Counted from the first letter of the stretch, positions 6,749-55,378 are shown. The stretch: DNA of 64,000 nucleotides from Spirochaetia bacterium (GCA_963675665.1 OY776510.1:5024001-5088000), one strand, 5' to 3'. Translations and numbers: made by a program. The notes: a model not told the origin generated them from the letters alone.

Positions 6749-7852
6749 TCATGCGACTTCTGTTCTACCTACCATCATTCCCCAAATAAATCCTGATAAT
6801 TCTCTGGCAACTGCCGTAACAGTTTTCTGAGGGCATACCCCTCTACGAATCATCCTGAAATATTTCTTACTCAACCTTCTGCCGGCTTTATCAGCATAAG
6901 CTATTGTTTCAGCAGATTGTCCTTTCCTTCTCGCTGTCAGTCGTTTCGATGGCGAATACCTTTGGTAATGCCAGCTTGATTCCACTAACAGCCGTCGTAG
7001 CCTGGAGTTGCCGGCCTTCGTAATCCCGCCAAGCTTCCGGCCCTCTCCGCTTGAGTATTCTGACGGCACAAGTCCAAGATACGCCATGAAGGATTCCGCT
7101 TTTTTAAATCTTCTGAAATCTCCTATCTCGCATACAAATGTTAATGCTGTTAATGTCTCTATACCTTTGAAACATCGAAGCCGGGATACCCTTTCTTTAT
7201 ATCTGTCTTCAGCAGCAATCTCTTCTATTTTTTCCTGCAACCGTTCAATCTTTTCCTCTAATTCCACAATCGCAAGATAATATTCTTTTAAAACTTCTTT
7301 ATGCATTACCTGTTCAAACTGCAAGTTTTTCAACCAGGTTCGATGCGCCCCTGTCCAGTACTTTTTCCCAATATCATATTTCTTCCCGTTCCTTAGCAGA
7401 AACTGTAAGAGCCTCTGTTTCTGTTTCCTCAAATCAATTTTCATATCGTTACACATCCTCATGTAATCACGAACTGATTCATCTGTGCGTGTCGGTATAT
7501 TCACCGGTGTTATTTCCTGATTCCTTAATGCTCTGGCTAATTTGACTGCATCCCTCTTGTCTGTCTTTATTCGGTCTCCGGGTTTCCTCGGCAATAATGA
7601 TGGTGCTGCTACGTAACAGATAATTCCCATATCTTCAAGTAATCTATAAAGTGTAAATCCTGTAGGGCCTGCTTCGTAACAACACAGAATATTTTCTCCA
7701 TTCTCTTTAAGTCGCTTGAAGAATCTTTTAATATTTCCGGGTTCGTTCCTGAGCTCTCTTTCAAACTCAGGATTCTGATAATTATCTCTGAATACCGCTA
7801 CTGCGATTGATTCCTTGTGGACATCCATCCCTACATAAATTACACTATTCAT
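6749..7852 (-). CDS. IS110 family transposase / bridge recombinase
   Basis: RuvC-like DEDD domain (VGMDVHK, CYEAGPTG, KTDKRDA); C-terminal Tnp domain (YLGLVPSEYSSG, GGITKAGNSRLRRLL, AVAREL); start set at ATG 7852 with RBS GGAGG. Confidence 0.95.
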   Translation of the reverse strand: MNSVIYVGMDVHKESIAVAVFRDNYQNPEFERELRNEPGNIKRFFKRLKENGENILCCYEAGPTGFTLYRLLEDMGIICYVAAPSLLPRKPGDRIKTDKRDAVKLARALRNQEITPVNIPTRTDESVRDYMRMCNDMKIDLRKQKQRLLQFLLRNGKKYDIGKKYWTGAHRTWLKNLQFEQVMHKEVLKEYYLAIVELEEKIERLQEKIEEIAAEDRYKERVSRLRCFKGIETLTALTFVCEIGDFRRFKKAESFMAYLGLVPSEYSSGEGRKLGGITKAGNSRLRRLLVESSWHYQRYSPSKRLTARRKGQSAETIAYADKAGRRLSKKYFRMIRRGVCPQKTVTAVARELSGFIWGMMVGRTEVA

Positions 7853-7956
7853 AGTGGCCTCCGTTCCTTTGTATGTGGCGTGTCTGCGCTTTGCCATTAG
7901 CCATTGTGTAGGCTAATCCACGATTTTGCAAACACGGCGGTCACTTCATATTGTCT

Positions 7957-12570: not shown

Positions 12571-12604
12571 TAAAAAAAACCGTCCGGAAAATCATCCGGA
12601 CGGT
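12571..12604 (-). terminator. Rho-independent terminator of the ABC operon
   Basis: ACCGTCCGGA-6-TCCGGACGGT hairpin followed by a U-run on the minus strand. Confidence 0.75.
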
Positions 12605-12655
12605 CTGAAATAAATTAACACTTCTCCTGAAATATCAACAGGACTTTCACAATTT

Positions 12656-13714
12656 TTATTCGGCATCGGCTCCTTTCTGCTGTTTAAGCGCCGCTTCATT
12701 CTGCTTTCTGAGCTGGAACTGGTCTACAACAACAGCAATTACAACTACAAATCCCTTTATTACCGTCTGCCAGAATGATGAAACACCGACCATTACAAGT
12801 CCGTCGTTAAGAACTCCGAGAATCAGCGCGCCTATTACCGAACCTCCGATCGAACCCCGGCCGCCGGAAAGCGAAGTACCGCCGAGAACGACCGCGGCGA
12901 TTGTGGTCAGCTCATACGATTCGCCCGTGGCAGGATGAGACGCTACCAGCTGGGATGAAAGAACAAGGCCCGTCAGGGCAGCTGTAAACCCCGAGAACAT
13001 ATAGGTTGCCATCTTGATTCTGCGCACCCTTATACCGGAAAGTTTTGCCGCATCGGCATTGCCGCCTACTGCATATACATGGCGGCCGAGCGGAGTTTTC
13101 TTTGAAACGTAAGCAGCTATAACGGCAAGCGCAATTGCAATCCATACTACAAGCGGAATTCCGATTATCGTGCCGGCGCCCAGTTTGGGAAACCCGGTGT
13201 TACCGAGGGAAGGATCACCGATCAGGTTAGGAAAGGTTTTCCCTCCCGAACGGAGCATTGCAAAACCCCGGGCCATATACATCATGCCTAGAGTTGCAAT
13301 AAACGGCGCAACTTTCAAACGGGTAATAAGAAGCCCGTTAACGGCTCCAAGACCCGTACCTATCAGAAGAACAATAATAATGATCATCCCCGTATGGAAA
13401 TAGATAACCAGGTCAAACATCGGCAGTCTCAGCCCTTCAACAATGAAACCGCCGGCAAGCATACCGCACAACCCGGCGATTGAACCGACCGAGAGATCAA
13501 TTCCGTCGCCGATTATTACAAATGTCATACCCATTGCAAGAATTGTCCATATTGCCGAATGCTTGGCCATTGCAACCAGGTTTGCAAACGAAAGAAAATT
13601 CGGAGCTATAATTCCAAATACTACCAATACGGCGAAAAATGCAATCAGTGTTCTTAGTTTAAGAAGGAGCATTCCAACGGAGAAATCCCCTTTCAATTTA
13701 TTTTTGGTAACCAT
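12656..13714 (-). CDS. Monosaccharide/polyol ABC transporter permease (RbsC/EryF-like)
   Basis: GIDLSVGS, APFIATLG, AVGGNADAAKLSGI, YELTTIAAVVLGGTSLSGG. Confidence 0.92.
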   Translation of the reverse strand: MVTKNKLKGDFSVGMLLLKLRTLIAFFAVLVVFGIIAPNFLSFANLVAMAKHSAIWTILAMGMTFVIIGDGIDLSVGSIAGLCGMLAGGFIVEGLRLPMFDLVIYFHTGMIIIIVLLIGTGLGAVNGLLITRLKVAPFIATLGMMYMARGFAMLRSGGKTFPNLIGDPSLGNTGFPKLGAGTIIGIPLVVWIAIALAVIAAYVSKKTPLGRHVYAVGGNADAAKLSGIRVRRIKMATYMFSGFTAALTGLVLSSQLVASHPATGESYELTTIAAVVLGGTSLSGGRGSIGGSVIGALILGVLNDGLVMVGVSSFWQTVIKGFVVVIAVVVDQFQLRKQNEAALKQQKGADAE

Positions 13715-13730
13715 AAGTCTGTTCCTCCTT

Positions 13731-15287
13731 TTATGCTATTGAAGTAATTCCATGACCAATTTCCGAAGCCTTTCGTACCTTTTCTTCAGTAGCTTCCGAA
13801 CGGTCAAATACTCCGGTCACCTTACCCTTTGAAAGTACTATGATTCGGTCGGACATCGAGAAGATTTCTTCCAGTTCCGACGAGACAAGAACAATACCGA
13901 ATTTCTCATTCGCCATGCTGTTTGTAATTTCAAAAACATCGGATTTTGCTCCGACATCAATTCCCCGGGTAGGCTCGTCCATCAGCAGTACTTTCGGTTT
14001 TGTCAGAAGACCCTTGCCTATAACCACTTTCTGCTGATTTCCTCCGGAAAGGGCGTTAATGGATATCTGCGGACTGGCAACCTTGATGGCAATCTGCCTG
14101 ATCGTTTCAATAACAGATTCATTCTCTTTCTCTTTATTTATATGAAAAATTCTGGTAAATGCTTTTAAACTCGACATGGTCAGATTGTGATCAACAGCAA
14201 GGTTCAGAAACAAGCCTTCTCGTTGCCGCTCTTCAGGAATAAGAACCAGCCCCCGCTCTATTCGCCCTTTTGTATCAATTCCGTCTATCCGTTCGCCCGA
14301 CAGCCATATTTTACCGGTAGTTTTTTCCATTGCCCCCATCAGGCTTTCGAGCAGTTCGGTCCGGCCGGCCCCCATCAGGCCGTAAATTCCCAGAACTTCG
14401 CCTTCCTTTACCTCGAAAGAAACATTATCAAGGGTATATCCGCCCCCGAATCGGGGCAAGGTCATATTTTCAGCCCTGAGAAGGACTTCGCCGGTTTGGT
14501 GAGCTTCACCCTGGAAAAACTTCTTCGGATCCCGTCCCACCATCTTTTCAATTATTTCATGCATCTCCATAGACGCAATTTCATTAAAATCTATCAGATT
14601 CGCATCTCTCAATATTGTTATGTAATCTCCGATCTCCTTAATTTCTTCAAGCCGGTGTGATATATACACAATGGCAACATTCTGCGATTTGAGATCATCA
14701 ATTACATCAAACAGGACCTTTACCTCCTGTTCGCTCAACGAAGACGTTGGTTCGTCCATTATCAGTATTTTCGGTTCATCGATCATGGTTTTTGCTATTT
14801 CCACAATCTGCTGCTGTCCAAGCCTCAGGTCACGCACAAGAGTCTCCGGTTTTATGTCCTGACCCAATCTTCTCAGAACTTCTACAGCACGTTCTTTCTG
14901 GCTTCCGTGGTCTATACTAAAGGCGTTTTTCTTCAATTCCTTGTTCATGAAGATGTTTTCAGCAACATCAAGATCGGCAAAAAGGTTAAGCTCCTGATGC
15001 ACTATACCTATTCCCTTCTGAACGGCATCACGGGTTGAGGAAAAAGAAACAACCTCCCGCGAACCGTTATCATCGTACATGATAAGTTCGCCGGCCGTCG
15101 GCTGCTCAATTCCGGCAATTATTTTCATAAGGGTGGATTTGCCTGCGCCGTTTTCTCCTACAAGAACATTTATCTTTCCCTTGTATATCTTGAAATCAAC
15201 ACAGTTTAATGCTTTGGTTCCGGGATATACCTTGTCTATCCCGACGGCTTCCATAATCAGCCCTTCTTTTGGTTCAATCATAAGCAA
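13731..15287 (-). CDS. Sugar ABC transporter ATP-binding protein (RbsA-type, tandem NBD)
   Basis: GENGAGKST, DEPTSSL, LSGGNQQK, DEPTRGIDVGAK. Confidence 0.95.
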   Translation of the reverse strand: MLMIEPKEGLIMEAVGIDKVYPGTKALNCVDFKIYKGKINVLVGENGAGKSTLMKIIAGIEQPTAGELIMYDDNGSREVVSFSSTRDAVQKGIGIVHQELNLFADLDVAENIFMNKELKKNAFSIDHGSQKERAVEVLRRLGQDIKPETLVRDLRLGQQQIVEIAKTMIDEPKILIMDEPTSSLSEQEVKVLFDVIDDLKSQNVAIVYISHRLEEIKEIGDYITILRDANLIDFNEIASMEMHEIIEKMVGRDPKKFFQGEAHQTGEVLLRAENMTLPRFGGGYTLDNVSFEVKEGEVLGIYGLMGAGRTELLESLMGAMEKTTGKIWLSGERIDGIDTKGRIERGLVLIPEERQREGLFLNLAVDHNLTMSSLKAFTRIFHINKEKENESVIETIRQIAIKVASPQISINALSGGNQQKVVIGKGLLTKPKVLLMDEPTRGIDVGAKSDVFEITNSMANEKFGIVLVSSELEEIFSMSDRIIVLSKGKVTGVFDRSEATEEKVRKASEIGHGITSIA

Positions 15288-15290
15288 CCT

Positions 15291-15980
15291 CTACTCTTTA
15301 ACTTCAATCACAGCAGGGGTCAGTATAATATCTTCGACCGCATCAGATTGTTCAAGTTTGAACGCTGCATAGAAGCTTACTGTTTTTCCGGAAAGGTTTT
15401 CCAGGTCAAGCGGTTCAACAACTACCTTTTTCATTTTATTATTCAACTCATCAGCAAGGCTGGCAAACTGCAGCTGGTTTCCGACTTCGGAAAATTTGAT
15501 AAAATCCAGCGAATCACGAAGCGCGGTCTTTTTTATAACCGGACCTACCTGAATGGCTGTATCCCTTACGCCGTCGGCAGGTACAAGATCTATGATAAGA
15601 AGTCCGTTTCTCGAGCTGCTGTCATATTCAAGAACAACTGCTTCACCTTTTACCTTAAACGCGAAACTTGCGGCTCCCTGAGTTTTTGTCAAACCATAAT
15701 CAGCTGTAGCTTTCTCCCTGTCGGACTTCAGCGCGTTGATAATAATATCGATATCTACACATTCTTCCTTAAAAGCCGGTACAAGCCTGGAATCCCAGAT
15801 TCCTTCTACATATGAAACAGGCTCAAACTGGCTTCCGCTTTTTGTCCAGGTTGAATACTCTCCCTTTACTTCTTTTGCTTCGACTTCACTTAATTTCCTG
15901 ACAGTACATGATGTAAAAGCTAAAAAGATGACTGCAATCAAAGTAAGGAACAGCAGACCTTTCTTATTCGTTTCGATCAT
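15291..15980 (-). CDS. DUF2291 family periplasmic lipoprotein
   Basis: Start MIETNK; lipobox FTSC; IQVGPVIKKTALRD..F.E..NQLQFA..A.ELN motif typical of DUF2291 in erythritol/apiose-type ABC loci. Confidence 0.8.
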   Translation of the reverse strand: MIETNKKGLLFLTLIAVIFLAFTSCTVRKLSEVEAKEVKGEYSTWTKSGSQFEPVSYVEGIWDSRLVPAFKEECVDIDIIINALKSDREKATADYGLTKTQGAASFAFKVKGEAVVLEYDSSSRNGLLIIDLVPADGVRDTAIQVGPVIKKTALRDSLDFIKFSEVGNQLQFASLADELNNKMKKVVVEPLDLENLSGKTVSFYAAFKLEQSDAVEDIILTPAVIEVKE

Positions 15981-16010
15981 ATTTTGACTCCAGATATATT
16001 GATTTACATT

Positions 16011-16040
16011 AAAAAAGGAATCCGGTCGAAACCGGACTCC
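16011..16040 (-). terminator. Hairpin/terminator after the binding-protein gene
   Basis: GGAATCCGG-TCGAAA-CCGGACTCC stem with a U-run on the minus strand. Confidence 0.55.
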
Positions 16041-16059
16041 CCTTATTCTATCATGAGAA

Positions 16060-17019
16060 TTAATTGATTGGTGCGAAACCTTTCCATTTGGTCGCATTTT
16101 CGGGAGTAATGAGGAAGCAGTCGTTAAGAATTTTTTCTTCACTCATGCCGGTTGAACCGGTTTTGATATATTTGTCGGCAAGTTCTACTGCCATTTCCGC
16201 GTTCTTTGCATTCGGCTGCATAACAGTTCCGTCGATTTTACCCTGAAGGATCGACTGAAGAACATTATCGTTTCCATCAAAACCCATTACAACTATATTG
16301 CCCTTTCCGGCTGCATCAATTGCTGCCTGTGCGCCGAGAGCCATTGTGTCGTTACCACAGATAATACCGTTAATGTCGGGATTTGCCTGAAGTATTGATT
16401 CAATATCAGCATATGCTTCTGTCTGGCTCCAGTTTGCTGTTTCTCTTGCAGCCATTACCATGTCAGGATACTGATCTATGATATTGTGAAAACCTTTGGA
16501 TCGGACACCTGCATTTGTATCTGATTCTTTTCCAACCAGCTCTACATATTTGCCTTTTTCTCCGAGAAGCGAAACAAACCTTTCAGCGCCGAGTTTTGCC
16601 CCCTGGAAGTTATTTGAAATAAGCTGAGCCTTTGCAATCCCGGTTGCATTTATCTCTCTGTCCATACAGAAAACAGGAATACCTGCATCTGTGGCTCTCT
16701 GAAGGTTATTCGGTGAAGCATCGGCATTTGCGATATCAATGATAATAGCTGCAGCATTTCTTGCAATAGCTGTATCGATTATATCACTTTCAGCATTAGG
16801 ATCATCACCATGAACCGCAAGCAGCGTTTCATAACCAAGAGATTCTGCTTTGGCTTTAGCAGCATCAGCTTCCGCTGTAAAGAAAATATTGTCTTTATCA
16901 GGGGTTACTATTACCATAAGATTTGATGACGCTTCAGCTTCCTGCTGACCTCCAGCGAACACCAGTCCTGCACCCAACAGGATTGATACAAGTGCGAAAA
17001 TAAGAATTTTCTTAGACAT
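16060..17019 (-). CDS. Polyol/pentose ABC transporter substrate-binding protein (RbsB/EryG-like)
   Basis: FAGGQQE N-terminus; NIFF, DRE, GKESDTNAGVRSKGF, ANWSQ, NDTMALGA, GFDG. Confidence 0.9.
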   Translation of the reverse strand: MSKKILIFALVSILLGAGLVFAGGQQEAEASSNLMVIVTPDKDNIFFTAEADAAKAKAESLGYETLLAVHGDDPNAESDIIDTAIARNAAAIIIDIANADASPNNLQRATDAGIPVFCMDREINATGIAKAQLISNNFQGAKLGAERFVSLLGEKGKYVELVGKESDTNAGVRSKGFHNIIDQYPDMVMAARETANWSQTEAYADIESILQANPDINGIICGNDTMALGAQAAIDAAGKGNIVVMGFDGNDNVLQSILQGKIDGTVMQPNAKNAEMAVELADKYIKTGSTGMSEEKILNDCFLITPENATKWKGFAPIN

Positions 17020-17132
17020 AAGCCCTCCTTAAATATAAACGCATCAACGATACGTAATGTACCAACGGCACATTGCACGCCTGTAGCGTGTTATCCACAT
17101 TAAAAAAATTGCGATATCCCAGAGCAAAACTC

Positions 17133-17146
17133 TGAAACCGATTTCA
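17133..17146. promoter_or_regulatory. LacI-type operator (copy 1)
   Basis: TGAAACCGATTTCA just downstream of a TTGACA-16-TAAACT promoter for the binding-protein gene. Confidence 0.7.
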
Positions 17147-17220
17147 TTGATGTTAAAAGTTTATCATACCCAACCCGTTTGTCAAGGAATATAACTCAAA
17201 AATCTTAATATTTTTGCGTA

Positions 17221-17245
17221 AGTTACCAGCTTTTTGGTAACTTTA
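17221..17245. promoter_or_regulatory. TACCA-N6-TGGTA palindromic site (copy 1)
   Basis: AGTTACCA-6-TGGTAACT; 17224-17245 is 19/22 identical to 33368-33389. Confidence 0.5.
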
Positions 17246-17293
17246 CACCATTACCTTACCAGTTTTGTCAGGTATTATTCAATGAAAGCGTTA

Positions 17294-18199
17294 TCAAACA
17301 GCTCCAATACCAATATCCAGACCAAGCATCCGGCCATAATCCGTATAGCCTGCGCATTCCGTTTTTTCAACATTGCTGAAAGATGCCCAGGGATATTCAA
17401 AACCGAGACCATCATATTTTCCTGATCCAAGCCGGTGAAAAGGCAATAATTCAACTTTTCTGATTGCGGTTTCCCGATAAATAAAATCAAGCATATGCTT
17501 AACGGTTTTTTCAGAATGGTTTACTCCGGGAATTACCGGGATACGAACCACAACATTATCATGGCAACGGCTGATCCCGGTTATATTCGCAAGAATTTTT
17601 TCCATACCGACTCCGGTATATTTCAGATGTTCAGCGTTGTCAATGTGCTTGAGATCTACATAAAAAAGATCAATTACATCAAGCAGGCTTTCGATTATCT
17701 GCCAGTCTACTGCAGCTGCTGTTTCAATTGCGGTATGTATACCTTCAGCTCTGCACCTTTCGGCAATTTCCCTGACCTCCCGGTGCTGCAGAAGGGGCTC
17801 TCCGCCGGAAAAAGTTACACCGCCCCCGGATTCCCTGTAGAAATGCCTGTCGGCGAGAACAACCTTCATAAGCTGCTCAATATCATAGTCCTGCCCCACT
17901 ACCCTTCGGGCATCAAAAAAACAGGCATCTGCGCATCTTCCACAACCCGTGCAGGCATCATGATCAGTTATAAAGCCGTATTTTTCCGAAAGAAAAACCG
18001 CGCCCTCAGGACAGACTTCAATGCATTTTCCGCAGCCGCTGCATTTATTTTTATAGTACATCAGCTGCTTTTTGAAACTCCAGGATTCCGGGTTCTGGCA
18101 CCAGCTGCATCTGAGGTTGCAGCCCTTGAAAAACAACACTGTTCGGATCCCGGGGCCGTCTTTCGTTGCATAACGCTCTATGTCAAAAACATTTATCAT
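17294..18199 (-). CDS. Glycyl-radical enzyme activating enzyme (radical SAM with ferredoxin insert)
   Basis: DGPGIRTVLFFKGCNLRCSWCQNPES; two CxxCxxCxxxC clusters; GGVTFSGGEP. Confidence 0.95.
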   Translation of the reverse strand: MINVFDIERYATKDGPGIRTVLFFKGCNLRCSWCQNPESWSFKKQLMYYKNKCSGCGKCIEVCPEGAVFLSEKYGFITDHDACTGCGRCADACFFDARRVVGQDYDIEQLMKVVLADRHFYRESGGGVTFSGGEPLLQHREVREIAERCRAEGIHTAIETAAAVDWQIIESLLDVIDLFYVDLKHIDNAEHLKYTGVGMEKILANITGISRCHDNVVVRIPVIPGVNHSEKTVKHMLDFIYRETAIRKVELLPFHRLGSGKYDGLGFEYPWASFSNVEKTECAGYTDYGRMLGLDIGIGAV

Positions 18200-19605
18200 A
18201 TTGTTGCAGGTTCAAAATCGCTCATCGCCGGCCCGCCCAAAAGCTGATGGTTTATATCCACGTTGCTGCGGAACTGGGCAATTCTTTCAACTGATGAGGC
18301 GTTATGCGCCCCCTGCTCCAGAGTTGTCTCGCCGGTGGAAACCACTCCTATTCCGGCAACAATACAGCACCCCTTATACCATCTAAGCATATTCAGAAGA
18401 GGGTTCTCGGGAGATCTGTCCAGAACAGTCCTGGAATCTATTAATCCGACGCGGGGATTAAGATATATGGCTTCAGCATCAATAGGATAAAGAACTGTAT
18501 GGTTATCCTGGGTATATACAACATTACTGTTGTCTCCGTAAAGAACCTGCTCGCCGTATTTTTCAGCGAGCACCGCCATACCCTCTGCATTCCCCAGAGG
18601 GTTCTGGGTTATCATACATGTATTCTGGTTCATATTATTATAAACAAGTTTATGAATGTGCAAATCAAGCGAGTCGTCATCAGAGGGTTTTATACTTTCC
18701 CGTCTAAGCGGAAAATCCATATTCTCGGGAACTGCGGACATGGGACAGTAAACCATTTCATCAGCGGAAATTCGCTGGCTCATCGAACCGGTGCCGTACC
18801 CGCTTATAAGATTATTATAATTATAGTTAAGACGCTGGGTAAAATCAGCTACCATTGCCTCATCGGCGACATCTCTCCGGGACAGTTCCGCTTCATTCAG
18901 CGGCTCGGGCCTGATACCGTAAAAAACGGCCGGTGTTTTATCATAAATATCGGAAAGCAGTTTAACCACATTAATTCCGCGGCGCCGCAGGTGCATCAGC
19001 GACATTGAACTTATCTCAATAGTCGTAAGCCTGTAAAGCCCGTCTTCAAGTGAATTCCCCCTGGCAAAGGGGCCATGGCCCCTTACAATGGTAAGCCTGT
19101 TATCAGCAAGGTATTTCGGCAGCCTTTCGGTCATCTCCGCAGACCCCACCGGTTGTACATATGTGCCGCAACGTACTTCTCCGACAATGAAAGATCCGTA
19201 GAAATCAACCGGATGAAACATGAATTCTTCACGCCCTTTATCATCCTCGCCGAGATATTTCATAAAAAGCTCTTTTTCTTTCGTATCGAAAGATACCGAA
19301 GAGGTATAAATGCCATGACTGTGAACTACTGCATTGGTTCCAGGATGCATAAGGATTTTACGGTGATTATCAGACTCTGTTGAACCGCGTGTATCACCCC
19401 AGGACACCCTGGAAAAGCGGACAGGTACAATATCATGCGGAACAAGAGCGCCAATCTGAGAACCGCTTGCAGTTATGTAAAATAAATCCGGGTTCTCGGG
19501 ATCCCTGACTGAAAGATTACCGCTATGAGTATTATTGGCATTAACGCGCCCGAGCGCCTCACCTATTGTTCGAAGATTCTTATATGCCCATTCGTGTGAT
19601 GTCAT
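18196..19605 (-). CDS. Tandem class II aldolase/adducin-domain protein
   Basis: N-domain SGNLS...TASG...STES..H...VHSHG...RGHG; second degenerate repeat (GSMS...LHIH..VY...MITQNP...VAGIG). Confidence 0.7.
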   Translation of the reverse strand: MTSHEWAYKNLRTIGEALGRVNANNTHSGNLSVRDPENPDLFYITASGSQIGALVPHDIVPVRFSRVSWGDTRGSTESDNHRKILMHPGTNAVVHSHGIYTSSVSFDTKEKELFMKYLGEDDKGREEFMFHPVDFYGSFIVGEVRCGTYVQPVGSAEMTERLPKYLADNRLTIVRGHGPFARGNSLEDGLYRLTTIEISSMSLMHLRRRGINVVKLLSDIYDKTPAVFYGIRPEPLNEAELSRRDVADEAMVADFTQRLNYNYNNLISGYGTGSMSQRISADEMVYCPMSAVPENMDFPLRRESIKPSDDDSLDLHIHKLVYNNMNQNTCMITQNPLGNAEGMAVLAEKYGEQVLYGDNSNVVYTQDNHTVLYPIDAEAIYLNPRVGLIDSRTVLDRSPENPLLNMLRWYKGCCIVAGIGVVSTGETTLEQGAHNASSVERIAQFRSNVDINHQLLGGPAMSDFEPATI

Positions 19606-21641
19606 TATGCTGCCCCCTCCGCTTTACTTACGCCGACCAATTCGTCAATTTGCAGTTTCTCCAGGGTTTCGGATATCGGAATGCCGTCCGGACTCCAACC
19701 CATTGCTTTATAATATTCCGTATGCATTTGTCCGAAAGCTTTCCGCTCACAAACTACCTTTCGTCCTTCTACTGTTGCAGGTTTTGTGTAAAACCGTTCA
19801 GGCAGCCAGTCATCATCCGTCGTCAGGCCGCAGGCAACATTGAACAGTCTTTCAAGCGTGTAGACCCTGTGACCTATGCGCTGCAGTTTACCGGCATTTA
19901 ATTCCATTCCTGTAATTGCGTTAAGCAGTTTTGCGTAGTCATCCAGAGGTATTGAAAACGAGGTGTATACGCATGAACCTATTGTATCAAAAACAGTATT
20001 GCGGAATGCGGCATTTTTCAGCACCAGCGGCGTACCTTCTATTCGACCGCCGTCCCATTCTCCGTACCCTGCGGCATACGCCTGCGCCGCCATGTAACCG
20101 CCCTCAAGGTGGCAGCCGCCGCGGTTGCTCATCTCATAGCTTAGAGCCTGACTGAATGAAGTTCTGGGATCATATGCGGGAAGTTCCTGTTTTTTCACCG
20201 TCATCGAGAGTTCAGGGTGGCCGTACCGTTCACAAAACCGAAAAGAGCCTTCGGCAAGATACCCGCCTATACCCTTTCGCTCTGCAATCATGTTTATCAG
20301 CGGAAGCAGAATTTCTTTGTTTCCGAATACCGGCTCTCCGACTTCTTTTACAAATAACGCCGAATCAGACATGAACTGTTGTTCTGCTTCATTCAAATTG
20401 TCCAAGGACTTGCAGGTTTCATATAAATCAACGAATGCGGATATTGTCCCGCCCAGGCTGATGGTATCCATGCCCAGACGGTTCGACGCATTGTTGGCAA
20501 GCGCTATAAGCGGAAGATCATAGATTGACAGATTAGCGCCCAGCAATGTTACGGATTCAAATTCCGGGCCTTCACCCTTGTCGAATTCATTTCCGTTCTC
20601 ATCATAGATCGTTATTTTTCGTTTGCAGGCTACAGGGCAGTTGTAGCAGGTACCTTTTTTTGCTTTTATACCGAACTCTCCGTCATGTTTAATATCATCG
20701 TAATAACGGAGAGCTTCACCGCTGATTCTGTCGATATCACTGTCGTTATGAGTTGTGTCTCTCATATTGTTATGAGGCAACTGACCATGATTATGCACCA
20801 TTCCCATAAGGCCAAGCGAGCCGAGAGAGGAAAGAATACCGTAGTCGACCTCTTTTCTGGTCAGTTTCCCGACATCCAGCATTATTTTGGCCTTGAATGC
20901 CGCGCTTTTACTGTTTTTTATACTCAGCATATCGGGATCAGCAACCTTTATTTCGGTTTCCGAATCGGGGACTACGGCAATCGCATGCAGGTTCTTTGAT
21001 CCCCAGACAGCTCCGCAGCCGTTTCGTCCAAAAGCGCGGCCTTTTTCATTTATTACAGCGGAAAACCTCACAAGGTTCTTTCCCGCCGGACCTATCGACA
21101 TTACACGAACACCCTCGGGTAATTCCGAAGCGATACCGTCGTTAGACTCTTCGGTTGAAGCTTCAGCATAAGCTGACGCATCCCTGACTGTAACATTGTC
21201 CTTCTGCACTACAAGATAAACCGGCTTCTCAGCCTTTCCGGTAATAAAAAGAACATCAATACCTGTCTTTTTCAGGGCCACACCCCAGTATCCGCCTGAA
21301 TTGCTGCTTCCGAGACCGCCGGTCAGCGGTGATTTGAAATTCATATGGAAACGGCCCGAACCCGGCATTTTAGTCCCGGTTGCGGGAGAGGTCGTTATAA
21401 TAACCGGATTATCCGGAGATAATCCGTCAATATCGCTAAAAGGATTGCCGTACTTCCCGGAAAGAGAAGCAAAATAACGATACAGCAACGCAATACCCAA
21501 CCCCCTTCCACCGAAATACCTGATCGCTATTTCAGGATCAAGCGGTTCGAATTTGCATTCACCTGAACTTAAGTCTATAAATGCAATTCTTCCCATAAAA
21601 CCAAGGGGCAGTCGTTTCTCTGCTGTTTTCATAGTTTCCAC
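19605..21641 (-). CDS. aor: Aldehyde:ferredoxin oxidoreductase family (W/Mo-pterin)
   Basis: YFGGRGLG, KSPLTGG, SNSGG, GR.G.GAVWGSKNL, CYNCPVAC, GPEFES, GMDTISLG, PAYDPR, NRGGCH. Confidence 0.92.
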   Translation of the reverse strand: METMKTAEKRLPLGFMGRIAFIDLSSGECKFEPLDPEIAIRYFGGRGLGIALLYRYFASLSGKYGNPFSDIDGLSPDNPVIITTSPATGTKMPGSGRFHMNFKSPLTGGLGSSNSGGYWGVALKKTGIDVLFITGKAEKPVYLVVQKDNVTVRDASAYAEASTEESNDGIASELPEGVRVMSIGPAGKNLVRFSAVINEKGRAFGRNGCGAVWGSKNLHAIAVVPDSETEIKVADPDMLSIKNSKSAAFKAKIMLDVGKLTRKEVDYGILSSLGSLGLMGMVHNHGQLPHNNMRDTTHNDSDIDRISGEALRYYDDIKHDGEFGIKAKKGTCYNCPVACKRKITIYDENGNEFDKGEGPEFESVTLLGANLSIYDLPLIALANNASNRLGMDTISLGGTISAFVDLYETCKSLDNLNEAEQQFMSDSALFVKEVGEPVFGNKEILLPLINMIAERKGIGGYLAEGSFRFCERYGHPELSMTVKKQELPAYDPRTSFSQALSYEMSNRGGCHLEGGYMAAQAYAAGYGEWDGGRIEGTPLVLKNAAFRNTVFDTIGSCVYTSFSIPLDDYAKLLNAITGMELNAGKLQRIGHRVYTLERLFNVACGLTTDDDWLPERFYTKPATVEGRKVVCERKAFGQMHTEYYKAMGWSPDGIPISETLEKLQIDELVGVSKAEGAA

Positions 21642-21680
21642 CTTATCTATAAAATTAACGGAGTTTGGTGCTTAAGGGTA

Positions 21681-22691
21681 TTAACCTATCAGTTTTCTGC
21701 AGGTTTCACCTATTTTCAGCTGTGTCGGTACAATTATCCGCTTTTCTTCCTTATCTGTATTATCTCCCCGGATCTTCTTCATCATGATATTGAAAGCACA
21801 CTGACAGAGTTCAGGGATATTCTGCTCTACAGTGGTCAGTTTCGTATTAAAAATTGTGTAATAGGGAATATTGTCAAAACCTATCAGAGAGATATCTTCC
21901 GGCACCGAAATATTTAAAAGCTTTGCCTTATTCAATGCACCAAGGGCCATTTGATCATTCGCGCTGAAAATAGCTGTAGGCCATTCTGACAGGGTCAGAA
22001 AATATTCCATTGCGTTTATTCCTGATTCAAAGCGTAAATCTCCGCGGCTGACCAGTTCCTGATTGAAAGAAACATCGTAAGCTTTAAGTGCGTCGCAATA
22101 ACCACGGAATCTCTCCTCTGCCGACGGCCATTTTGCCGGCCCGCTGATAAAACCTATTCTCCGGTGATTAAGCTGCAGAAGGTATTCTACAGCCTGGCGC
22201 GCTCCGTTATAGTTATCGCTGCTGACTTCAGACACAACGCCTTCCTCGCTGTGCCTGTCGATAAGCACCGTTTCGGTATACTGACGCGCCCGCTCTATCG
22301 TGTTCATCGAAATTCCCTCGGCAAATATTATCCCGCCTATTTTATTGTCCAGCAGATAATCAAGATAAATCCTCTCCTTCTCCTCATTATTTTCCGTGTC
22401 GCATACCGTCAGCGGTATCCCCTGCTCCATGGCAAGATGACTTATCCGGCGCACAATCATGGCAAAAAACGGGTTCAGAATATCAAAGACAAATAATGCA
22501 AGTCCCCAGCGCGATTTGGAACTCAACCTTGATGCAAACGGGTTAGGTTTGTAACCAACCTCACGCATGGTGTTTTCTATCTTTTCACGCAACGGCGCGG
22601 CAACAATATCCGGATTATTTAACACCCTCGAGACGGTTGCAGGAGATGTTCCGCAGAGTTTTGCTATTTCCGTTATCGTATATTTAGACAA
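21681..22691 (-). CDS. LacI family transcriptional regulator
   Basis: TITEIAKLCGTSPATVSRVLN HTH; NDQMALG, PEDISLIGFDN. Confidence 0.93.
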   Translation of the reverse strand: MSKYTITEIAKLCGTSPATVSRVLNNPDIVAAPLREKIENTMREVGYKPNPFASRLSSKSRWGLALFVFDILNPFFAMIVRRISHLAMEQGIPLTVCDTENNEEKERIYLDYLLDNKIGGIIFAEGISMNTIERARQYTETVLIDRHSEEGVVSEVSSDNYNGARQAVEYLLQLNHRRIGFISGPAKWPSAEERFRGYCDALKAYDVSFNQELVSRGDLRFESGINAMEYFLTLSEWPTAIFSANDQMALGALNKAKLLNISVPEDISLIGFDNIPYYTIFNTKLTTVEQNIPELCQCAFNIMMKKIRGDNTDKEEKRIIVPTQLKIGETCRKLIG

Positions 22692-22707
22692 ACCATGCCT
22701 CCTGTGG

Positions 22708-22721
22708 TGAAAACGATTTCA
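22708..22721. promoter_or_regulatory. LacI-type operator (copy 2)
   Basis: TGAAAACGATTTCA between a TTGACA-17-TTTAAT promoter and the lacI RBS. Confidence 0.7.
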
Positions 22722-22777
22722 ACCACACCTATTAAAAACCCCGCCGGAGCATATGTCAAGCGGGAATTATTTACTTC

Positions 22778-23461
22778 CTAGCTGAACAGATCTTTGTTTT
22801 TCTGACCGTAATGATTTTTGGCAAAGTCCTGCATTGCCTTAATTTCATCCTGGCTGAATTTTCGGATGTTATTGCCGAGCAGATTGGCAAACAAAAGAAT
22901 CTGCGCATTTTTCTCAAGCACCATGCTCACTTTTAAAGCCATCTTCATGTCGGTTCCGACAAGCAACGCGCCGTGTCCCGGAAGAAGAACTGCATTATTA
23001 TTCCCGAGTCCGGCAACCGCCACATCTCCGAGAGCCTCAGTTCCCGGAAGTTCATAGGGGCTTGCTACCTTTATTTCAGCTCCTACTATCTGGATAAAAT
23101 CTTCGCTTACCCCGATGAGGTTCTGCCCTGCTACTCCAAAAGCTGTTGAGTAGACCGGATGCGTATGAATGACCGCATTAACGTCCGATCTTGCATTAAA
23201 CACTGCAAGATGCATATGCTTTTCAATTGAAGGCTCTGCTTCTCCGTCGACAATATTCAGCTCAGTATCCATTACAACAACATGCTGCGGTTGTATCTTG
23301 GAATAATCCATTCCGCTCGGGCTTATATAAACCAGATTGGTTTCCGGGTCGCGCGCGCTTATATTTCCCCACGTTCCGACGGTGATTCCTTTAGCGACCA
23401 TCTCAATTCCTGTATCAACAATAAGCTGCTTATAGCTGCCTTTGATACGTCTATCCATCAT
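22778..23461 (-). CDS. Class II aldolase (L-fuculose-1-phosphate aldolase-like)
   Basis: GTWGNIS, SPSG, PSIEKHMH, AVIHTHP, PGT..L, LLPGHG. Confidence 0.88.
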   Translation of the reverse strand: MMDRRIKGSYKQLIVDTGIEMVAKGITVGTWGNISARDPETNLVYISPSGMDYSKIQPQHVVVMDTELNIVDGEAEPSIEKHMHLAVFNARSDVNAVIHTHPVYSTAFGVAGQNLIGVSEDFIQIVGAEIKVASPYELPGTEALGDVAVAGLGNNNAVLLPGHGALLVGTDMKMALKVSMVLEKNAQILLFANLLGNNIRKFSQDEIKAMQDFAKNHYGQKNKDLFS

Positions 23462-23585
23462 ATAACTCCTAATGATTTAATATTATCATACTTATGGTAT
23501 ATTTCTACCTATTTTTACACATTTTTGTCAATATAGTCTCAACTTCTTTATTTACATTTTATTTTTACCATATTATAATCCAATT

Positions 23586-24362
23586 ATGAGTAATAAACAA
23601 AAGCGCCTCGAAGTGCTGAAAAGCATGCTGAAAGTCGAACATTCAATGAAAATCTCGGACATTTCGAACCGGATCGGCGTATCTCCAATGACTACCAGAC
23701 GCGATATTGAAATACTTGAACACGAAGGCTTTATAAAAGTTCTTCACGGAGCCGTCATATATAATGCCGCTGCAGAACCCGGCGGCCTGTCTGATTACAT
23801 GCTGACGGTTGCCGAAAGCAGGCAGAAAGAAAAGAAACAACATATTGCTCATCATGCGTTATCGTATATCGAAGATAATGATATCATTTTTCTCGATGCC
23901 GGATCAACGACAGAATCACTTGCCCGAAGGCTTCCCGAAAATCTGAAGCTTACAGTTATATGCTATACCATCAACATTTTTCTTGCTGTTGCAGATCATC
24001 CAAATATTACAGTCATTCTGCTAGGAGGAACTTACAACCGCGAAACAATGATACTGGAACAGAAAGGCGTTTCTCCCATACTTCAGAACAACCGGACAAA
24101 GAAGGCTTTTATTTCAGCAGGAGGTTTTCATACAAAACTCGGAGTCACCTGCTCAAATGAAAACGAGCGCCTGACAAAGCAAACAGCAGTCAATCAAACT
24201 GCCGAGTCTTTTCTACTGATTGATTCATCAAAATTCGGTGAAGTGAATTCATGTTTCTTTGCAGGGACCAATGATTTCGATCATATAATTACCGACAATA
24301 ATATCCCCGATAATTACAGAGAAGAATTAGCCGGATTCGATACTGAAGTACATTTCGTCTGA
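23586..24362 (+). CDS. DeoR/GlpR family transcriptional regulator
   Basis: VSPMTTRRDI HTH; IFLDAGST; LIDSSKFG. Confidence 0.92.
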   Translation: MSNKQKRLEVLKSMLKVEHSMKISDISNRIGVSPMTTRRDIEILEHEGFIKVLHGAVIYNAAAEPGGLSDYMLTVAESRQKEKKQHIAHHALSYIEDNDIIFLDAGSTTESLARRLPENLKLTVICYTINIFLAVADHPNITVILLGGTYNRETMILEQKGVSPILQNNRTKKAFISAGGFHTKLGVTCSNENERLTKQTAVNQTAESFLLIDSSKFGEVNSCFFAGTNDFDHIITDNNIPDNYREELAGFDTEVHFV

Positions 24363-24399
24363 TAAGATTAAAAACCGTCTGAATGCTGCATATTTTCAA

Positions 24400-24454
24400 T
24401 TGCAGATTCATGTTTACTGTGGTATTCTTTAAAAACGGTCTGAAACCGTTTTCA
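24400..24454 (+). promoter_or_regulatory. Promoter and LacI-type operator (copy 3) of the GRE gene
   Basis: TTGCAG-17-TATTCT with TG extension, then TGAAACCGTTTTCA at 24441-24454. Confidence 0.7.
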
Positions 24455-24477
24455 TAAAGGCTTTATAGGAGATTGAT

Positions 24478-26889
24478 ATGAATACACGAATTGTAAAATT
24501 AAGAGAAGGACTCTTTGAAAATATCCCGGAAATATGCCCGGAGAGGGCGGTAATTTTTACCGAAGAAATGAAAAGAAGCGAAGGGGAACCCATTGTAAAG
24601 CGAAGGGCACAGGCTTTGTATGAAGTCCTTGATAAAATCACAATATTCATAAGAGACGGCGAACTTCTTGTCGGAAACCAGGCCTCAACAGTGCGCGGAG
24701 CTCCGGTTTTCCCCGAATACTCCGTCGACTGGATTGTAGATGAATTCAACGGTAAACCCTACCACTTTGCAGAGAGACCCTGCGATCAGTTCCGGTACAC
24801 AGAAAAAACAAAAAAACTGGTCCTTGAAACAATTGAATACTGGAAAAACAAAACCTTGATAAAAAACGTCTGGAGCAGCCTTCCGGAAGAAGCAAGAACA
24901 GCCTGGGAGATAAATGCCATCGACGACACATGGTGTGCTGCCGCCGGCCTTGGAAATGTTCTGCCTGATCACTCAATGGTTCTCACACACGGTCTTGAAT
25001 ATGTTATTGCAAAGGCTGAACAAAGAATTCAGAACCTCGACCTTACCGAGCCCGGCACAATCAGTCAGTACTGGTTTCTTCAGGCCGTGGTAACGGCAAA
25101 TAAGGCTGTAATAAACTTTGCCTCAAGGTATGCTGCTCTTCTGGAGAAGGAAGCAGCCTCATGCACAGACGCCGTCCGGAAAAATGAGCTTCTGGCTATG
25201 GCCGCAAACTGCCGGCGTGTTCCTGCAAAACCGGCGGAAACCTTCTGGCAGGCCGTTCAGACCGTATGGTTTATCCAGCTTATACTTCAGATAGAAACAA
25301 ACGGTCATGCAATATCCCTGGGACGCTTTGATCAGTACCTGTATCCGTATTACCGCAACGATATCGACAGGGGAATAATAACAAAGGATCAGGCGCTTGA
25401 GATAGTAGAATCGTTCTTTATAAAGGCGAATGAAATAAACAAACTTCGGTCATGGCCTGACAGCGAATATTTTCCCGGATATCATCTTGCGGAAAACCTC
25501 GCCATCGGCGGACAGCTTGCCGACGGAACCGATGCGGTAAATGATCTGACGCATATTATACTTGAGGCGACCGGAGATCTGCGCCTGACAAAACCGTCGG
25601 TTTCACTTAAATGGTACGAAGGAACAAGCGATGAGTTTATGCACAAAGCCCTTGAGGTAATAGATAAACATAAAGGCGGACAGCCGGCGCTTTACAACGA
25701 TCCGGGCGTAATGAAAATACTTGAGGGTATGGGGGTAGCAAAAGAAGATCTTTACACCTGGGCGCCTGTAGGCTGTATTGAAGCGTCGATACCGGGCAAA
25801 TGGGATTTTGCCGCAAAGGGTTCATGGCTCAACGTCGGTAAGGTTTTCGAAATGACGCTTAATAACGGAACTGATCCCAATACCGGAATATGCCTGCTGC
25901 CCGGAGACGGTTACCTGTCCGGGTTTAAAAGCAGCGCTGAACTGATGGCAGCCTTCAAGAAACAGCTTCATTACTATATGGAACTGCAGGTTATCGTAGA
26001 ACACATCAGCGACGAGATGCACATTCTGCATGACCAGAACGCATTCAGATCATCGCTTGTTCATGACTGTATTGAACGGGGGAAATCACTTATCGAAGGC
26101 GGAGCTGTTTATACCGCCGACGGAGGTCCTACAGCGGGCTCCATTTCGGTTGGAAACGCATTCGCAGCAATAGAATATGCCGTTTTCGACAAGAAACTGC
26201 TCACAGCCGCCCAGATAGCGCACGCGCTTGAAACCAATTACGAAGACAGTACAACATCCCCCTCCGGCGAAGAAATCAGGCAGCTTCTTCTCAATAAAGC
26301 GCCTAAATTCGGAAATGATGATGATTATGTTGATAAATGGGTAGTGGAAATAACCGACTACCTGGGCTCAAGCTACCATAAGGATTTCAAGAGTTCCAGA
26401 TACGGCAAGGGCCCGGTCCCGGCCACTTTTGCTCTCAGCATGAGTTCGGTTACCGGAAACGTGGCGTTCGGAAAGTCGGTGGGAGCCCTGCCTGACGGCC
26501 GCAAAGCCACACTGCCGGTAAACAACGGTGTATCTCCAGCAAACGGAACAGAAAAAACAGGCCCTACAGCCCTGATAAATTCAGAAGGAAAACTGCCGAG
26601 CTGCTGGTGTCAGAAGGGAACAATTTTCAACATGAGGCTTACTCCTGAAACATTAAAAACCCCGGAAGGCCGTAACAGAGCCCTTGCTCTCGTAAAAAAT
26701 CACTTTAAGAATAATCAGTTTCATATACAATTCAATGTATTAAGCGATAAAACCCTCCTCGAAGCACAGCAGAAACCTGAAGAATACCAGGATCTGATGG
26801 TACGCATCTCGGGATACAGCGCGTTTTTTACACCGCTGAACGAAGAACTACAGCGGGATGTGATTGAAAGAATGAAGTTTGATTTTTAA
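24478..26889 (+). CDS. Glycyl radical enzyme (PFL2/dehydratase-like), substrate unassigned
   Basis: Cys loop VGCIE; Gly loop LMVRISGYSAFF; SLGRFDQYLYP; GALPDGR. Confidence 0.93.
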   Translation: MNTRIVKLREGLFENIPEICPERAVIFTEEMKRSEGEPIVKRRAQALYEVLDKITIFIRDGELLVGNQASTVRGAPVFPEYSVDWIVDEFNGKPYHFAERPCDQFRYTEKTKKLVLETIEYWKNKTLIKNVWSSLPEEARTAWEINAIDDTWCAAAGLGNVLPDHSMVLTHGLEYVIAKAEQRIQNLDLTEPGTISQYWFLQAVVTANKAVINFASRYAALLEKEAASCTDAVRKNELLAMAANCRRVPAKPAETFWQAVQTVWFIQLILQIETNGHAISLGRFDQYLYPYYRNDIDRGIITKDQALEIVESFFIKANEINKLRSWPDSEYFPGYHLAENLAIGGQLADGTDAVNDLTHIILEATGDLRLTKPSVSLKWYEGTSDEFMHKALEVIDKHKGGQPALYNDPGVMKILEGMGVAKEDLYTWAPVGCIEASIPGKWDFAAKGSWLNVGKVFEMTLNNGTDPNTGICLLPGDGYLSGFKSSAELMAAFKKQLHYYMELQVIVEHISDEMHILHDQNAFRSSLVHDCIERGKSLIEGGAVYTADGGPTAGSISVGNAFAAIEYAVFDKKLLTAAQIAHALETNYEDSTTSPSGEEIRQLLLNKAPKFGNDDDYVDKWVVEITDYLGSSYHKDFKSSRYGKGPVPATFALSMSSVTGNVAFGKSVGALPDGRKATLPVNNGVSPANGTEKTGPTALINSEGKLPSCWCQKGTIFNMRLTPETLKTPEGRNRALALVKNHFKNNQFHIQFNVLSDKTLLEAQQKPEEYQDLMVRISGYSAFFTPLNEELQRDVIERMKFDF

Positions 26890-26913: not shown

Positions 26914-26949
26914 AAAAGCCCCGCCGGTTATCAGGTCGGGGCTTTTTTT
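26914..26949 (+). terminator. Rho-independent terminator (probably bidirectional)
   Basis: AAAAGCCCCG...CGGGGCTTTTTTT between convergent genes. Confidence 0.8.
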
Positions 26950-40439: not shown

Positions 40440-40463
40440 GAATGCCCCTGAATTCCTTTAATT

Positions 40464-41828: not shown

Positions 41829-41844
41829 TTTTTATTCTCCATGT

Positions 41845-43215: not shown

Positions 43216-43224
43216 ATTTCGTTC

Positions 43225-44553: not shown

Positions 44554-44578
44554 AACTTTCTCTCCTCTCCGTTAATAT

Positions 44579-48425: not shown

Positions 48426-48917
48426 TCACCTCCCTGAACCGTCGCCGGAGAAATCAATCTTTACACTTTCGGCAAGGGGACAGATTTCAAGATCATCATC
48501 CGGAGTACCGGATTTAAATATGACCAGTATCCGCCCGATATCATCGAGGGGAAAAGGAGACCAGTGCCAGGTCCCCTCATGCATTGCGACGGCTTCTCCC
48601 TGTCGTATGACAAAAGCAGCAAGATCCTCTCCCGCACGCCCCCCCGGTTTTCCGAACAGCACGACTGAATCGCCTTCAATCCCAATCATAATTTCAGGAG
48701 AGTTTTTATGCCTTTCCATTTGGGTTACTATTTTTTCTCTCCGGTATATTTCCAGTATTCCGGTAGATGTGGTCCGGCCCATTTGCAGTTCAGACACCTT
48801 ATCCCAGTATGTAATTTCTTTATTCGCAGCGACCGGGCATCCGTTTGTCAGGGATATAATTTTCCCGAAACGTTCAAATCTGTCCTGCGACAATTTTTCG
48901 ACGTCTATATTTATCAA
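48426..48917 (-). CDS. Ureidoglycolate-lyase-like cupin
   Basis: F..FG, MERH..SPE, GTWHWSPF. Confidence 0.75.
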   Translation of the reverse strand: MINIDVEKLSQDRFERFGKIISLTNGCPVAANKEITYWDKVSELQMGRTTSTGILEIYRREKIVTQMERHKNSPEIMIGIEGDSVVLFGKPGGRAGEDLAAFVIRQGEAVAMHEGTWHWSPFPLDDIGRILVIFKSGTPDDDLEICPLAESVKIDFSGDGSGR

Positions 48918-48942
48918 TTGTTCTCTCCCGTAAATTCCTGTT

Positions 48943-49974: not shown

Positions 49975-49997
49975 AAAAAAAGGTAAACTGCTTATTT

Positions 49998-51110: not shown

Positions 51111-51112
51111 GG

Positions 51113-52558: not shown

Positions 52559-52578
52559 AACTTCTCCAAGTAAAATAT

Positions 52579-52737: not shown

Positions 52738-52743
52738 ATATTT

Positions 52744-53745: not shown

Positions 53746-53761
53746 TTATTTACTCCTAAAG

Positions 53762-53817: not shown

Positions 53818-53835
53818 CCATTTTCTGAATAATAA

Positions 53836-55374: not shown

Positions 55375-55378
55375 TACA

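Follow-up and report, generated by a model that had tools for sequence, protein, structure and literature searches.

Glycyl radical enzymes (GREs) give anaerobes chemistry that is otherwise missing from oxygen-free metabolism. Here we analyse a 64,000-nucleotide (nt) stretch of a Spirochaetia bacterium genome (GCA_963675665.1 OY776510.1:5024001-5088000; hereafter the window, whose numbering is used for all positions given without a prefix), in which positions 12656 to 26889 encode an 803-residue GRE beside an ATP-binding cassette (ABC) sugar importer, aldolases, regulators and an aldehyde:ferredoxin oxidoreductase family enzyme (AOR). By its sequence, the GRE is a member of a distinct, uncharacterised clade that matches no characterised class, and the importer is of the type that serves D-apiose, a branched pentose found in the pectins of plants and seagrasses. 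We tentatively read the locus, with a confidence somewhat short of even, as a composite island that would catabolise an apiose-type pentose, D-apiose being the likeliest, through a new radical first step. The GRE sits in a sugar pathway, and what a preliminary description of this DNA had presented as a single GRE–AOR–aldolase pathway is a mosaic of modules. The clade is widespread and has an altered active site, and its genomic context supplies a concrete and testable candidate substrate in D-apiose. If this reading holds, the radical route would be a new entry of an apiose-type pentose into central metabolism and possibly a new type of GRE reaction; it would probably represent a new oxygen-free route of an unusual pentose into sugar-phosphate metabolism.

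The GRE gene (24478-26889, plus strand) encodes a protein with the features of the superfamily: a PFL-like domain (PF02901, E = 4e-183), a glycyl radical domain (PF01228, E = 6e-28), a Cys loop (VGCIEAS, from residue 431) containing C433 and E435, a Gly loop (RISGYS, within VRISGYSAFF) containing G779, both loops aligning with those of YbiW and PflD, and a radical SAM activase encoded nearby (17294-18199, minus strand), which has a ferredoxin-like insert and scores 348 bits with TIGR02494, against a cut-off of 174. The only NCBIfam model that the GRE passes is the broad TIGR01774 subfamily (706 against 678). It falls far below the equivalog cut-offs of HpfG (514 against 1000 bits), HypD (509 against 1100), HpsG (486 against 1000) and CutC (476 against 1050) and below that of the PflD model PRK09983 (486 against 1109); the choline TMA-lyase, HypD, HpfG/HpsG and arylacetate decarboxylase models taken together gave 476, 509, 514, 486, 394 and 289 bits, against cut-offs of 1000-1150. 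The protein is 38% identical to Escherichia coli YbiW and 33% to PflD. Its best sequence matches in the PDB are an Enterobacter GRE (6xs4, 566 bits) and YbiW (552 bits), followed by a propanediol dehydratase (PD; 9rco, 530 bits), the Roseburia PD (522 bits) and glycerol dehydratase (GD; 515 bits). In a quick maximum-likelihood tree of 41 GREs, from which two short rows were excluded, the window GRE and 25 relatives form a 26-row clade with a stem of 1.03 and an SH-aLRT support of 100, apart from both the YbiW group, which includes another GRE of the same genome, and the PflD group. The claim that the GRE belongs to no characterised class thus stands. The clade occurs in Spirochaetota, Bacillota and Atribacterota; a database search lists at least 120 clusters (built at 90% identity) with 58-89% identity, all under generic names, and a cultured relative has a GRE that is 78% identical. 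Within the phylum the distribution is patchy: at E ≤ 1e-250, no member turned up in any of 250 other genomes. The portion of a review that bears on this point describes entire GRE clades as lacking validation and names YbiW and PflD as the only sugar-active GREs (PMC13450708).

The active site combines a retained and a replaced catalytic element. The C433-I-E435 loop agrees with the GCIE (CxE) loop of the preliminary description and is one hallmark of the GRE 1,2-eliminases; a second, the acid histidine, is absent. His166 of PD (GVGHV), which we take to be equivalent to His164 of GD, aligns with Asn160 (GLGNV) of the window GRE. In the 41-row alignment, asparagine occupies this position in 26/26 clade rows and histidine in 14 of the 15 other rows, the remaining PFL-like row having arginine; the YbiW-type GRE of the same genome keeps the histidine. 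According to the relevant part of the review, the CxE motif has a role in 1,2-elimination and GD His164 protonates the leaving hydroxyl (PMC13450708). Elsewhere in the pocket, Phe344-Gln345 of PD align with Ala338-Glu339, and where YbiW has RSGSHSK the window GRE has the acidic RSWPDSE, a change that would argue against a phosphate-bearing ligand and suit a non-phosphorylated substrate. The 20-residue pocket segment that begins at W326, earlier described as unlike the known classes, does differ from those of PD and YbiW in our alignments. Core-clade proteins, those of Atribacterota and one of Bacillota among them, keep this segment, which differs in Petroclostridium and in genome G015 (YQMF-type) and in a 56%-identical paralog within the same genome. 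The AlphaFold model of the GRE has a mean pLDDT of 73.9, with values below 50 at residues 428-446, 643-716 and 775-788. Its structural Z scores are tied among PD, CutC, HpzG, YbiW and GD (38.4-39.6), so that structure matches do not discriminate among these enzymes.

The sugar can be approached through the importer, whose genes lie in a row on the minus strand: a periplasmic sugar-binding protein of the CUT2 ribose/apiose type (16060-17019, PF13407), a DUF2291 lipoprotein-like transporter component (15291-16142; PF10054, E = 2e-54 over residues 70-280), an ATPase with two ATP-binding domains (13731-15287, PF00005 matched twice) and a CUT2 ABC permease (12656-13714; PF02653, E = 8e-41). The true start of the DUF2291 gene is probably internal to the called open reading frame (ORF), because the called start overlaps the binding-protein gene. 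The binding protein matches PDB entries 5ibq and 4ry0 at E = 2e-106, and its model (pLDDT 89.7) superposes on 4ry0 with a Z of 39.7 and 59% identity; 4ry0 is Rhizobium etli RHE_PF00037, in an entry titled as a ribose transporter binding protein, and 5ibq is reportedly the D-apiose complex of Carter et al. (2018). Our literature search returned no paper on RHE_PF00037 (EFI-511357, Q2JZQ5), none on DUF2291 and none that connects apiose with 5ibq. In E. coli SE15, a cluster for which growth on D-apiose is stated in the part of the source concerned (PMC13001218) places genes for a binding protein, DUF2291, an ATPase and a permease beside aplK and aptAB. The window has the identical set in the identical order, with 37%, 23%, 46% and 50% identity, respectively, and its four genes are the best matches in their own genome to the E. 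coli importer components. This homology bears out, as regards apiose, the earlier description of an erythritol/apiose-type importer with DUF2291, and by sequence the importer is of the apiose type, known from clusters of E. coli and Pectobacterium, both here and in many spirochaetes.

A second link to apiose comes from related GRE loci. In 9 of 29 such loci, the GRE cluster adjoins a module encoding a FucI-like isomerase, an AptA/AptB-like split transketolase and a GlpK-like (AplK-like) kinase. The genome studied here carries its own copy of the transketolase module at 2.54 Mb, with a DeoR gene and with no transporter gene beside it; a Pfam scan found no aplK, aptA or aptB within 12656-26889. 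The kinase of this module and E. coli AplK match the same GlpK profile, both below threshold, at 493 and 495 bits, and in a quick tree of 14 transketolase N-subunits E. coli AptA groups with the copies from this genome and from a Guaymas spirochaete locus (L019; SH-aLRT 93). Carter et al. are said to have described in 2018 a D-apiose transketolase pathway comprising apsI, aplK and aptAB together with an ABC importer. Another source, in the part that concerns D-apiose, counts one route through transketolase and three that are oxidative, with no mention of a radical enzyme (PMC13753588). Among the papers listed by our literature search, none ties apiose or pentose kinases to a GRE or describes a GRE that acts on a pentose.

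Comparison of the 29 loci, which include that of G015 and several from the same metagenome-assembled genome (MAG) or genus, defined what travels with the GRE; many of the contigs are short, so absences in these counts mean little. Homologues of the LacI regulator occur in 25/29 loci and of the activase in 21/29, followed by the binding protein (16, of which 11 at ≥75% identity), the ATPase (15), the FucA-like aldolase (13, of which 11 at ≥49% identity), the DeoR regulator (13), the permease (12) and DUF2291 (10); AOR was found in two loci and the 469-residue tandem aldolase-like protein in one. The recurrent core is therefore the GRE, its activase, LacI and a CUT2 ABC importer, with a FucA-like aldolase and RhaB- or XylB-like kinases as frequent companions. 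The preliminary description had named a lack of neighbourhood conservation in homologues as one ground for rejecting its proposal, and the outcome is split: the core is kept, whereas the AOR and tandem-aldolase part is not. Several clusters are compact. The Petroclostridium locus (L030) reads binding protein, FucA-like aldolase, GRE, activase, RhaB-like FGGY kinase, LacI, ATPase and permease; G015 (L050) reads FucA-like aldolase, RhaB-like FGGY kinase, ATPase, binding protein, permease, activase, GRE and LacI; Oceanispirochaeta reads activase, LacI, GRE, DeoR, FucA-like aldolase, ABC genes and FGGY kinase; and a Bacillota MAG (L045) reads GRE, activase, LacI, ABC genes and XylB-like FGGY kinase. 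No isomerase gene was found among the genes scanned in these compact clusters.

Two further gene sets were seen in these loci. A DUF4037 and DUF4125 pair, absent from the window, occurs in 12/29 loci, located between the binding-protein and activase genes (L019, L020, L032, L037-L043 and L046; for example, L039:4746-6240). In an Atribacterota MAG (L025:2392-7419), the GRE is preceded by genes for an LsrF-like thiolase (491 bits against a cut-off of 297), a class II aldolase, a short-chain dehydrogenase/reductase (SDR), an RraA-like protein, a ribokinase-like kinase and RbsD, a set that may hint at a diketo-pentose-phosphate branch.

The kinases and the FucA-like aldolase point to the fate of the product. 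Rhamnulokinase is the closest model for the Petroclostridium, G015 and Oceanispirochaeta kinases (315-358 bits, with a cut-off of 528), and those of the Bacillota and Atribacterota loci pass the XylB model. A Pfam scan of the 11 proteins of the window locus gave no match to kinase, bacterial microcompartment (BMC) shell or AdhE families, and BMC shell matches (PF00936) in the whole genome are confined to 0.37 Mb, with none at the GRE locus. The earlier statement that no kinase, shell gene or AdhE lies here is thus correct for the locus itself, but its first part misleads, because homologous loci have RhaB- or XylB-like kinases and the best RhaB-like FGGY kinase of this genome lies only 13.6 kb upstream from the permease, about 1 kb before the window (genome positions 5021540-5023021). 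That kinase is 44-49% identical to the RhaB-like kinases of the compact clusters and closest to the rhamnulokinase (TIGR02627, 331 bits) and fuculokinase models. It adjoins a gene for an enoyl-CoA hydratase (ECH), 50% identical to one in L019. Between the kinase/ECH pair and the GRE locus lie a family-B DNA polymerase and an IS110-family transposase (541-2862 and 6749-7897) as well as unrelated genes, and this arrangement suggests that an insertion split an older cluster. The FucA-like class II aldolase of the dihydroxyacetone phosphate (DHAP) type (22778-23461, minus strand; Aldolase_II, E = 3e-45) has 6btd as its best PDB match (E = 1e-34), and its Glu and His residues (PSIE, HTH, GHG) align with the metal site of FucA-type enzymes, which comprises a glutamate and three histidines; like the kinase, it remains below the equivalog cut-offs.

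The AOR and its partner form a separate unit. AOR (19605-21641, minus strand) has both AFOR domains (AFOR_N, E = 4e-64; AFOR_C, E = 2e-98) and lies below the named NCBIfam equivalog cut-offs. Its stop codon has one base in common with the start of the gene for a 469-residue class II aldolase-like protein (18196-19605, minus strand), the end of which overlaps the activase start by 4 nt. Of the 'tandem aldolase' reported previously, the N-terminal half is clear (Aldolase_II, E = 7e-26 over residues 14-197), whereas the C-terminal half is a weak, degenerate second domain (E = 0.011, below the cut-off); Atlas places the protein in Aldolase_II clusters of about 470 residues. Homologues with 60-62% identity occur in 4/200 other genomes of the class and lie directly after an AOR gene in 3/3 of the other loci with flanks. 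In G303 (L061:10156-16622), genes for DeoR, a FucA-like aldolase, a RhaB-like kinase, AOR and the tandem aldolase stand amid housekeeping genes, and in G328 ABC permeases, a RhaB-like kinase, ECH, AOR and the tandem aldolase occur together. No GRE at E ≤ 1e-100 was found in G303, G328 or G413 (92-94% complete), and the GREs of G425 are only 33% and 38% identical. The FucA-like aldolase, RhaB-like kinase, AOR and tandem aldolase thus constitute a separate 'lower' module that occurs without a GRE, and the single obligatory pathway of GRE, AOR and tandem aldolase proposed earlier does not survive the counts of two and one in 29 GRE loci. Because the lower module occurs without a GRE, AOR is more likely to oxidise an aldehyde from the aldolase than a direct GRE product, and its substrate is most plausibly the aldehyde that the aldolase releases.

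In the scheme that we infer, covering substrate, order of steps and chemistry alike, the four-component importer would bring in the free sugar, and the activated GRE would commit this sugar, still unphosphorylated, or its keto-isomer to the pathway by radical chemistry, supplying the kinase substrate and thus occupying the place of an isomerase. The ketose-type product would be phosphorylated by the RhaB-like FGGY kinase (XylB-like in some relatives) and split by the FucA-like aldolase, perhaps together with the tandem aldolase-like protein, into DHAP and a short aldehyde, which in this genome AOR would oxidise with ferredoxin. The Cys433 thiyl radical would take a carbinol hydrogen, with Glu435 as the base. 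For the reaction itself, a redox-neutral isomerisation, ring-opening or rearranging, that turns D-apiose or D-apulose into a ketopentose-type product seems to us more likely than a dehydration of the PD or GD type: the replacement of the acid histidine by asparagine throughout the clade makes such a dehydration doubtful, and β-elimination products would misfit a C1 kinase and a DHAP aldolase. Two simpler reactions were rejected on paper, namely the isomerisation of apiose to apulose by the GRE, for which the transketolase module already has an isomerase, and the dehydration of a polyol to 1-deoxy-ketoses, which misfit the kinase and aldolase. One specific form of the proposal, which we regard as a long shot, is that the clade represents the first glycyl-radical carbon-skeleton isomerase: once D-apulose or D-apiose had lost a hydrogen from a hydroxymethyl branch, the branched pentose would become a linear ketopentose through a B12-mutase-type 1,2-acyl shift, and loss of the acid histidine would suppress the competing dehydration. 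Such an enzyme would explain the apiose-type importer, the adjacent isomerase module, and the xylulokinase- or rhamnulokinase-type kinases with a DHAP aldolase.

Several observations weigh against a radical first step for apiose. The genome already has the full transketolase module with its isomerase, so what it would gain from a GRE route for apiose is unexplained. The usual ketyl and β-elimination chemistry yields α-deoxy carbonyls, which suit a C1 kinase and a DHAP aldolase poorly; to form the proposed product, the GRE would have to use a reaction that, to our knowledge, has no precedent among these enzymes. Glu435, the base that promotes elimination, is retained, and the AlphaFold model is poor (pLDDT below 50) at the Cys and Gly loops. 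The link between the lower module and the GRE could be one of co-regulation only, because the kinase, aldolase, AOR and tandem module occurs where no GRE was found. Moreover, DUF2291 is missing from the Firmicute, Atribacterota and G015 loci, which encode different binding proteins (29-35% identical) and whose sugar may differ from that of the spirochaetes; L030, L050 and the paralog also depart from the pocket motif.

The preliminary description had the GRE dehydrate or cleave a free sugar or polyol directly to an aldehyde, with AOR oxidising that aldehyde and class II aldolases acting on an intermediate; for apiose, the attack might fall on the tertiary C3 hydroxyl. The CxE pair typical of eliminases (C433 and E435) fits such a reaction, for which a tertiary alcohol would be a natural target, and AOR is translationally coupled to the activase operon, with a second GRE–AOR–activase cluster present in the genome (L049). 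This is nevertheless not the best fit and appears unlikely, since the histidine aligned with PD His166, the counterpart of which acts as the acid in the GD mechanism as partly set out in PMC13450708, is asparagine in 26/26 clade members and AOR occurs in just 2/29 loci; moreover, AOR with its aldolase partner and kinase is found in genomes where no GRE was detected, and the products that can be drawn would misfit a RhaB-like kinase and a DHAP aldolase. A variant of 'anhydroglycolysis' fed by an ABC importer, in which a YbiW-like C–O lyase would open an unphosphorylated anhydro-alditol or similar cyclic ether and the deoxy-ketose product would be phosphorylated and then split by the class II aldolase, takes its support from the Enterobacter homologue and YbiW being the best PDB sequence matches (566 and 552 bits), from the delivery of the YbiW and PflD products to an aldolase, as stated in that portion of the review (PMC13450708), and from the acidic RSWPDSE in place of RSGSHSK, which would suit a substrate without phosphate. 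We consider it quite improbable: PD (522 bits) and GD (515 bits) score nearly as high and the Z scores are tied, identity is only 38%, this genome encodes a YbiW-type enzyme besides, which retains the histidine that the window GRE has lost, a 1-deoxy-ketose cannot be phosphorylated at C1 by a RhaB-like kinase, and the importer and transketolase module point to apiose.

The GRE might alternatively act late, as in the BMC-associated fucose and rhamnose loci, dehydrating a small diol or hydroxy-aldehyde released by the aldolase (of the propanediol, ethylene glycol or glycolaldehyde type). The pairing of a GRE with a class II aldolase is known from GRM5 loci, as described in the corresponding part of the review (PMC13450708), and PD structures are top or tied structural matches; yet neither a reductase nor a BMC shell gene is present at the locus, such a role would leave the compact clusters without an isomerase, His166 and Phe344 of PD align with Asn160 and Ala338, and a pocket segment rich in aromatic and polar residues would suggest a sugar-sized ligand, so that we give this arrangement very little weight. 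Least credible to us is that island shuffling brought the genes together, with the GRE serving an unrelated substrate. The locus is indeed mosaic, with the IS110 transposase and family-B polymerase between kinase and cluster, and its modules occur separately elsewhere, but the GRE, activase, LacI and ABC importer recur together across Spirochaetota, Bacillota and Atribacterota, and kinase and aldolase lie inside compact operons. A radical first step on an apiose-type pentose remains the reading that we favour.

All of the genes listed in the preliminary description are present at the positions given there, as judged from the ORF list and from the Pfam and NCBIfam scans on which our gene calls rest. 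On the minus strand, the order is FucA-like aldolase, LacI (21681-22691; PF00356 and Peripla_BP_3), AOR, the 469-residue protein, activase, binding protein, DUF2291, ATPase and permease. The DeoR-family regulator (23586-24362; DeoRC and HTH_DeoR) and the GRE lie on the plus strand, divergent from the minus-strand genes, with DeoR facing away from the aldolase gene and preceded by a promoter-like site (23551-23579, 11/12 matches). A consensus scan, from which this site also comes, places the gene unit (12656-26889) between terminator-like hairpins ending at 12577 and 26939: a strong one at the end of the minus-strand operon (12577-12606, minus strand; 12-bp stem with 7 GC pairs and a T run), which begins 50 nt past the permease stop, and a weaker one past the GRE gene (26924-26939, plus strand).

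Beyond the locus, the 5.15-Mb genome has about 10 PFL-like GRE genes, about 10 split transketolase pairs and more than 20 FGGY kinase matches, an unusually large anaerobic sugar-catabolic repertoire. One cluster (G000:C1:173500-179400; L049:1509-7371), next to a LysR gene, encodes AOR, a 758-residue GRE, an activase and a HAD hydrolase; this GRE, whose pocket segment carries a long insertion, belongs to another type, and the cluster indicates that the pairing of GRE and AOR recurs in the organism. The 56%-identical paralog (G000:C1:165400-172000; L048:13399-19935) has its own activase and CUT2 ABC genes and the pocket motif YHMAIN, and its cluster contains no kinase and no aldolase. Elsewhere in the window, a long minus-strand cluster at 39051-56812, which appears unrelated to the GRE locus, encodes MFS sugar transporters, several FAD oxidoreductases, a GatZ-like protein, a PfkB kinase, a zinc alcohol dehydrogenase and a GFO/IDH/MocA oxidoreductase.

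A comparison with known systems places the locus between several of them. YbiW and PflD are, in the relevant passage of the review, C–O lyases of 1,5-anhydroglucitol-6-phosphate and 1,5-anhydromannitol-6-phosphate, termed GRE 'isomerases' (PMC13450708). The window GRE shares with them the fold and the CxE Cys loop and, on our reading, a sugar substrate and delivery of the product to an aldolase; it differs in its low identity (38% and 33%), its separate clade, Asn160 in place of the YbiW histidine and its pocket segment. Their systems use a phosphotransferase system (PTS) and FSA, whereas the window has an ABC importer, with a kinase and a class II FucA-like aldolase; in E. coli, fsaA adjoins ybiW and frw PTS genes adjoin pflD, and neither type of gene is found at the window locus. 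The B12-independent glycerol and 1,2-propanediol dehydratases likewise have CxE and an activase that bears a ferredoxin insert, and their structural Z scores are tied (38.5-39.6), but His166, Phe344 and Gln345 of PD are replaced by Asn160, Ala338 and Glu339, and the window locus is without a BMC and without a downstream acylating aldehyde dehydrogenase; no BMC shell gene is found among its proteins, unlike in the BMC-associated GRE loci (GRM). The lower pathway of L-fucose and L-rhamnose, in which an FGGY ketose-1-kinase and a class II aldolase yield DHAP and an aldehyde, has its counterparts here in the rhamnulokinase- and fuculokinase-like kinase, the FucA-type metal-site residues and the DeoR-type regulator; the window locus has no isomerase or mutarotase, its kinase and aldolase stay below the equivalog cut-offs, and the aldehyde would go to AOR and the tandem aldolase-like protein rather than to FucO or AldA. 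With the D-apiose transketolase pathway, finally, the locus shares the importer architecture, including DUF2291, but here that importer is joined instead to a GRE, a RhaB-like kinase, a class II aldolase and AOR.

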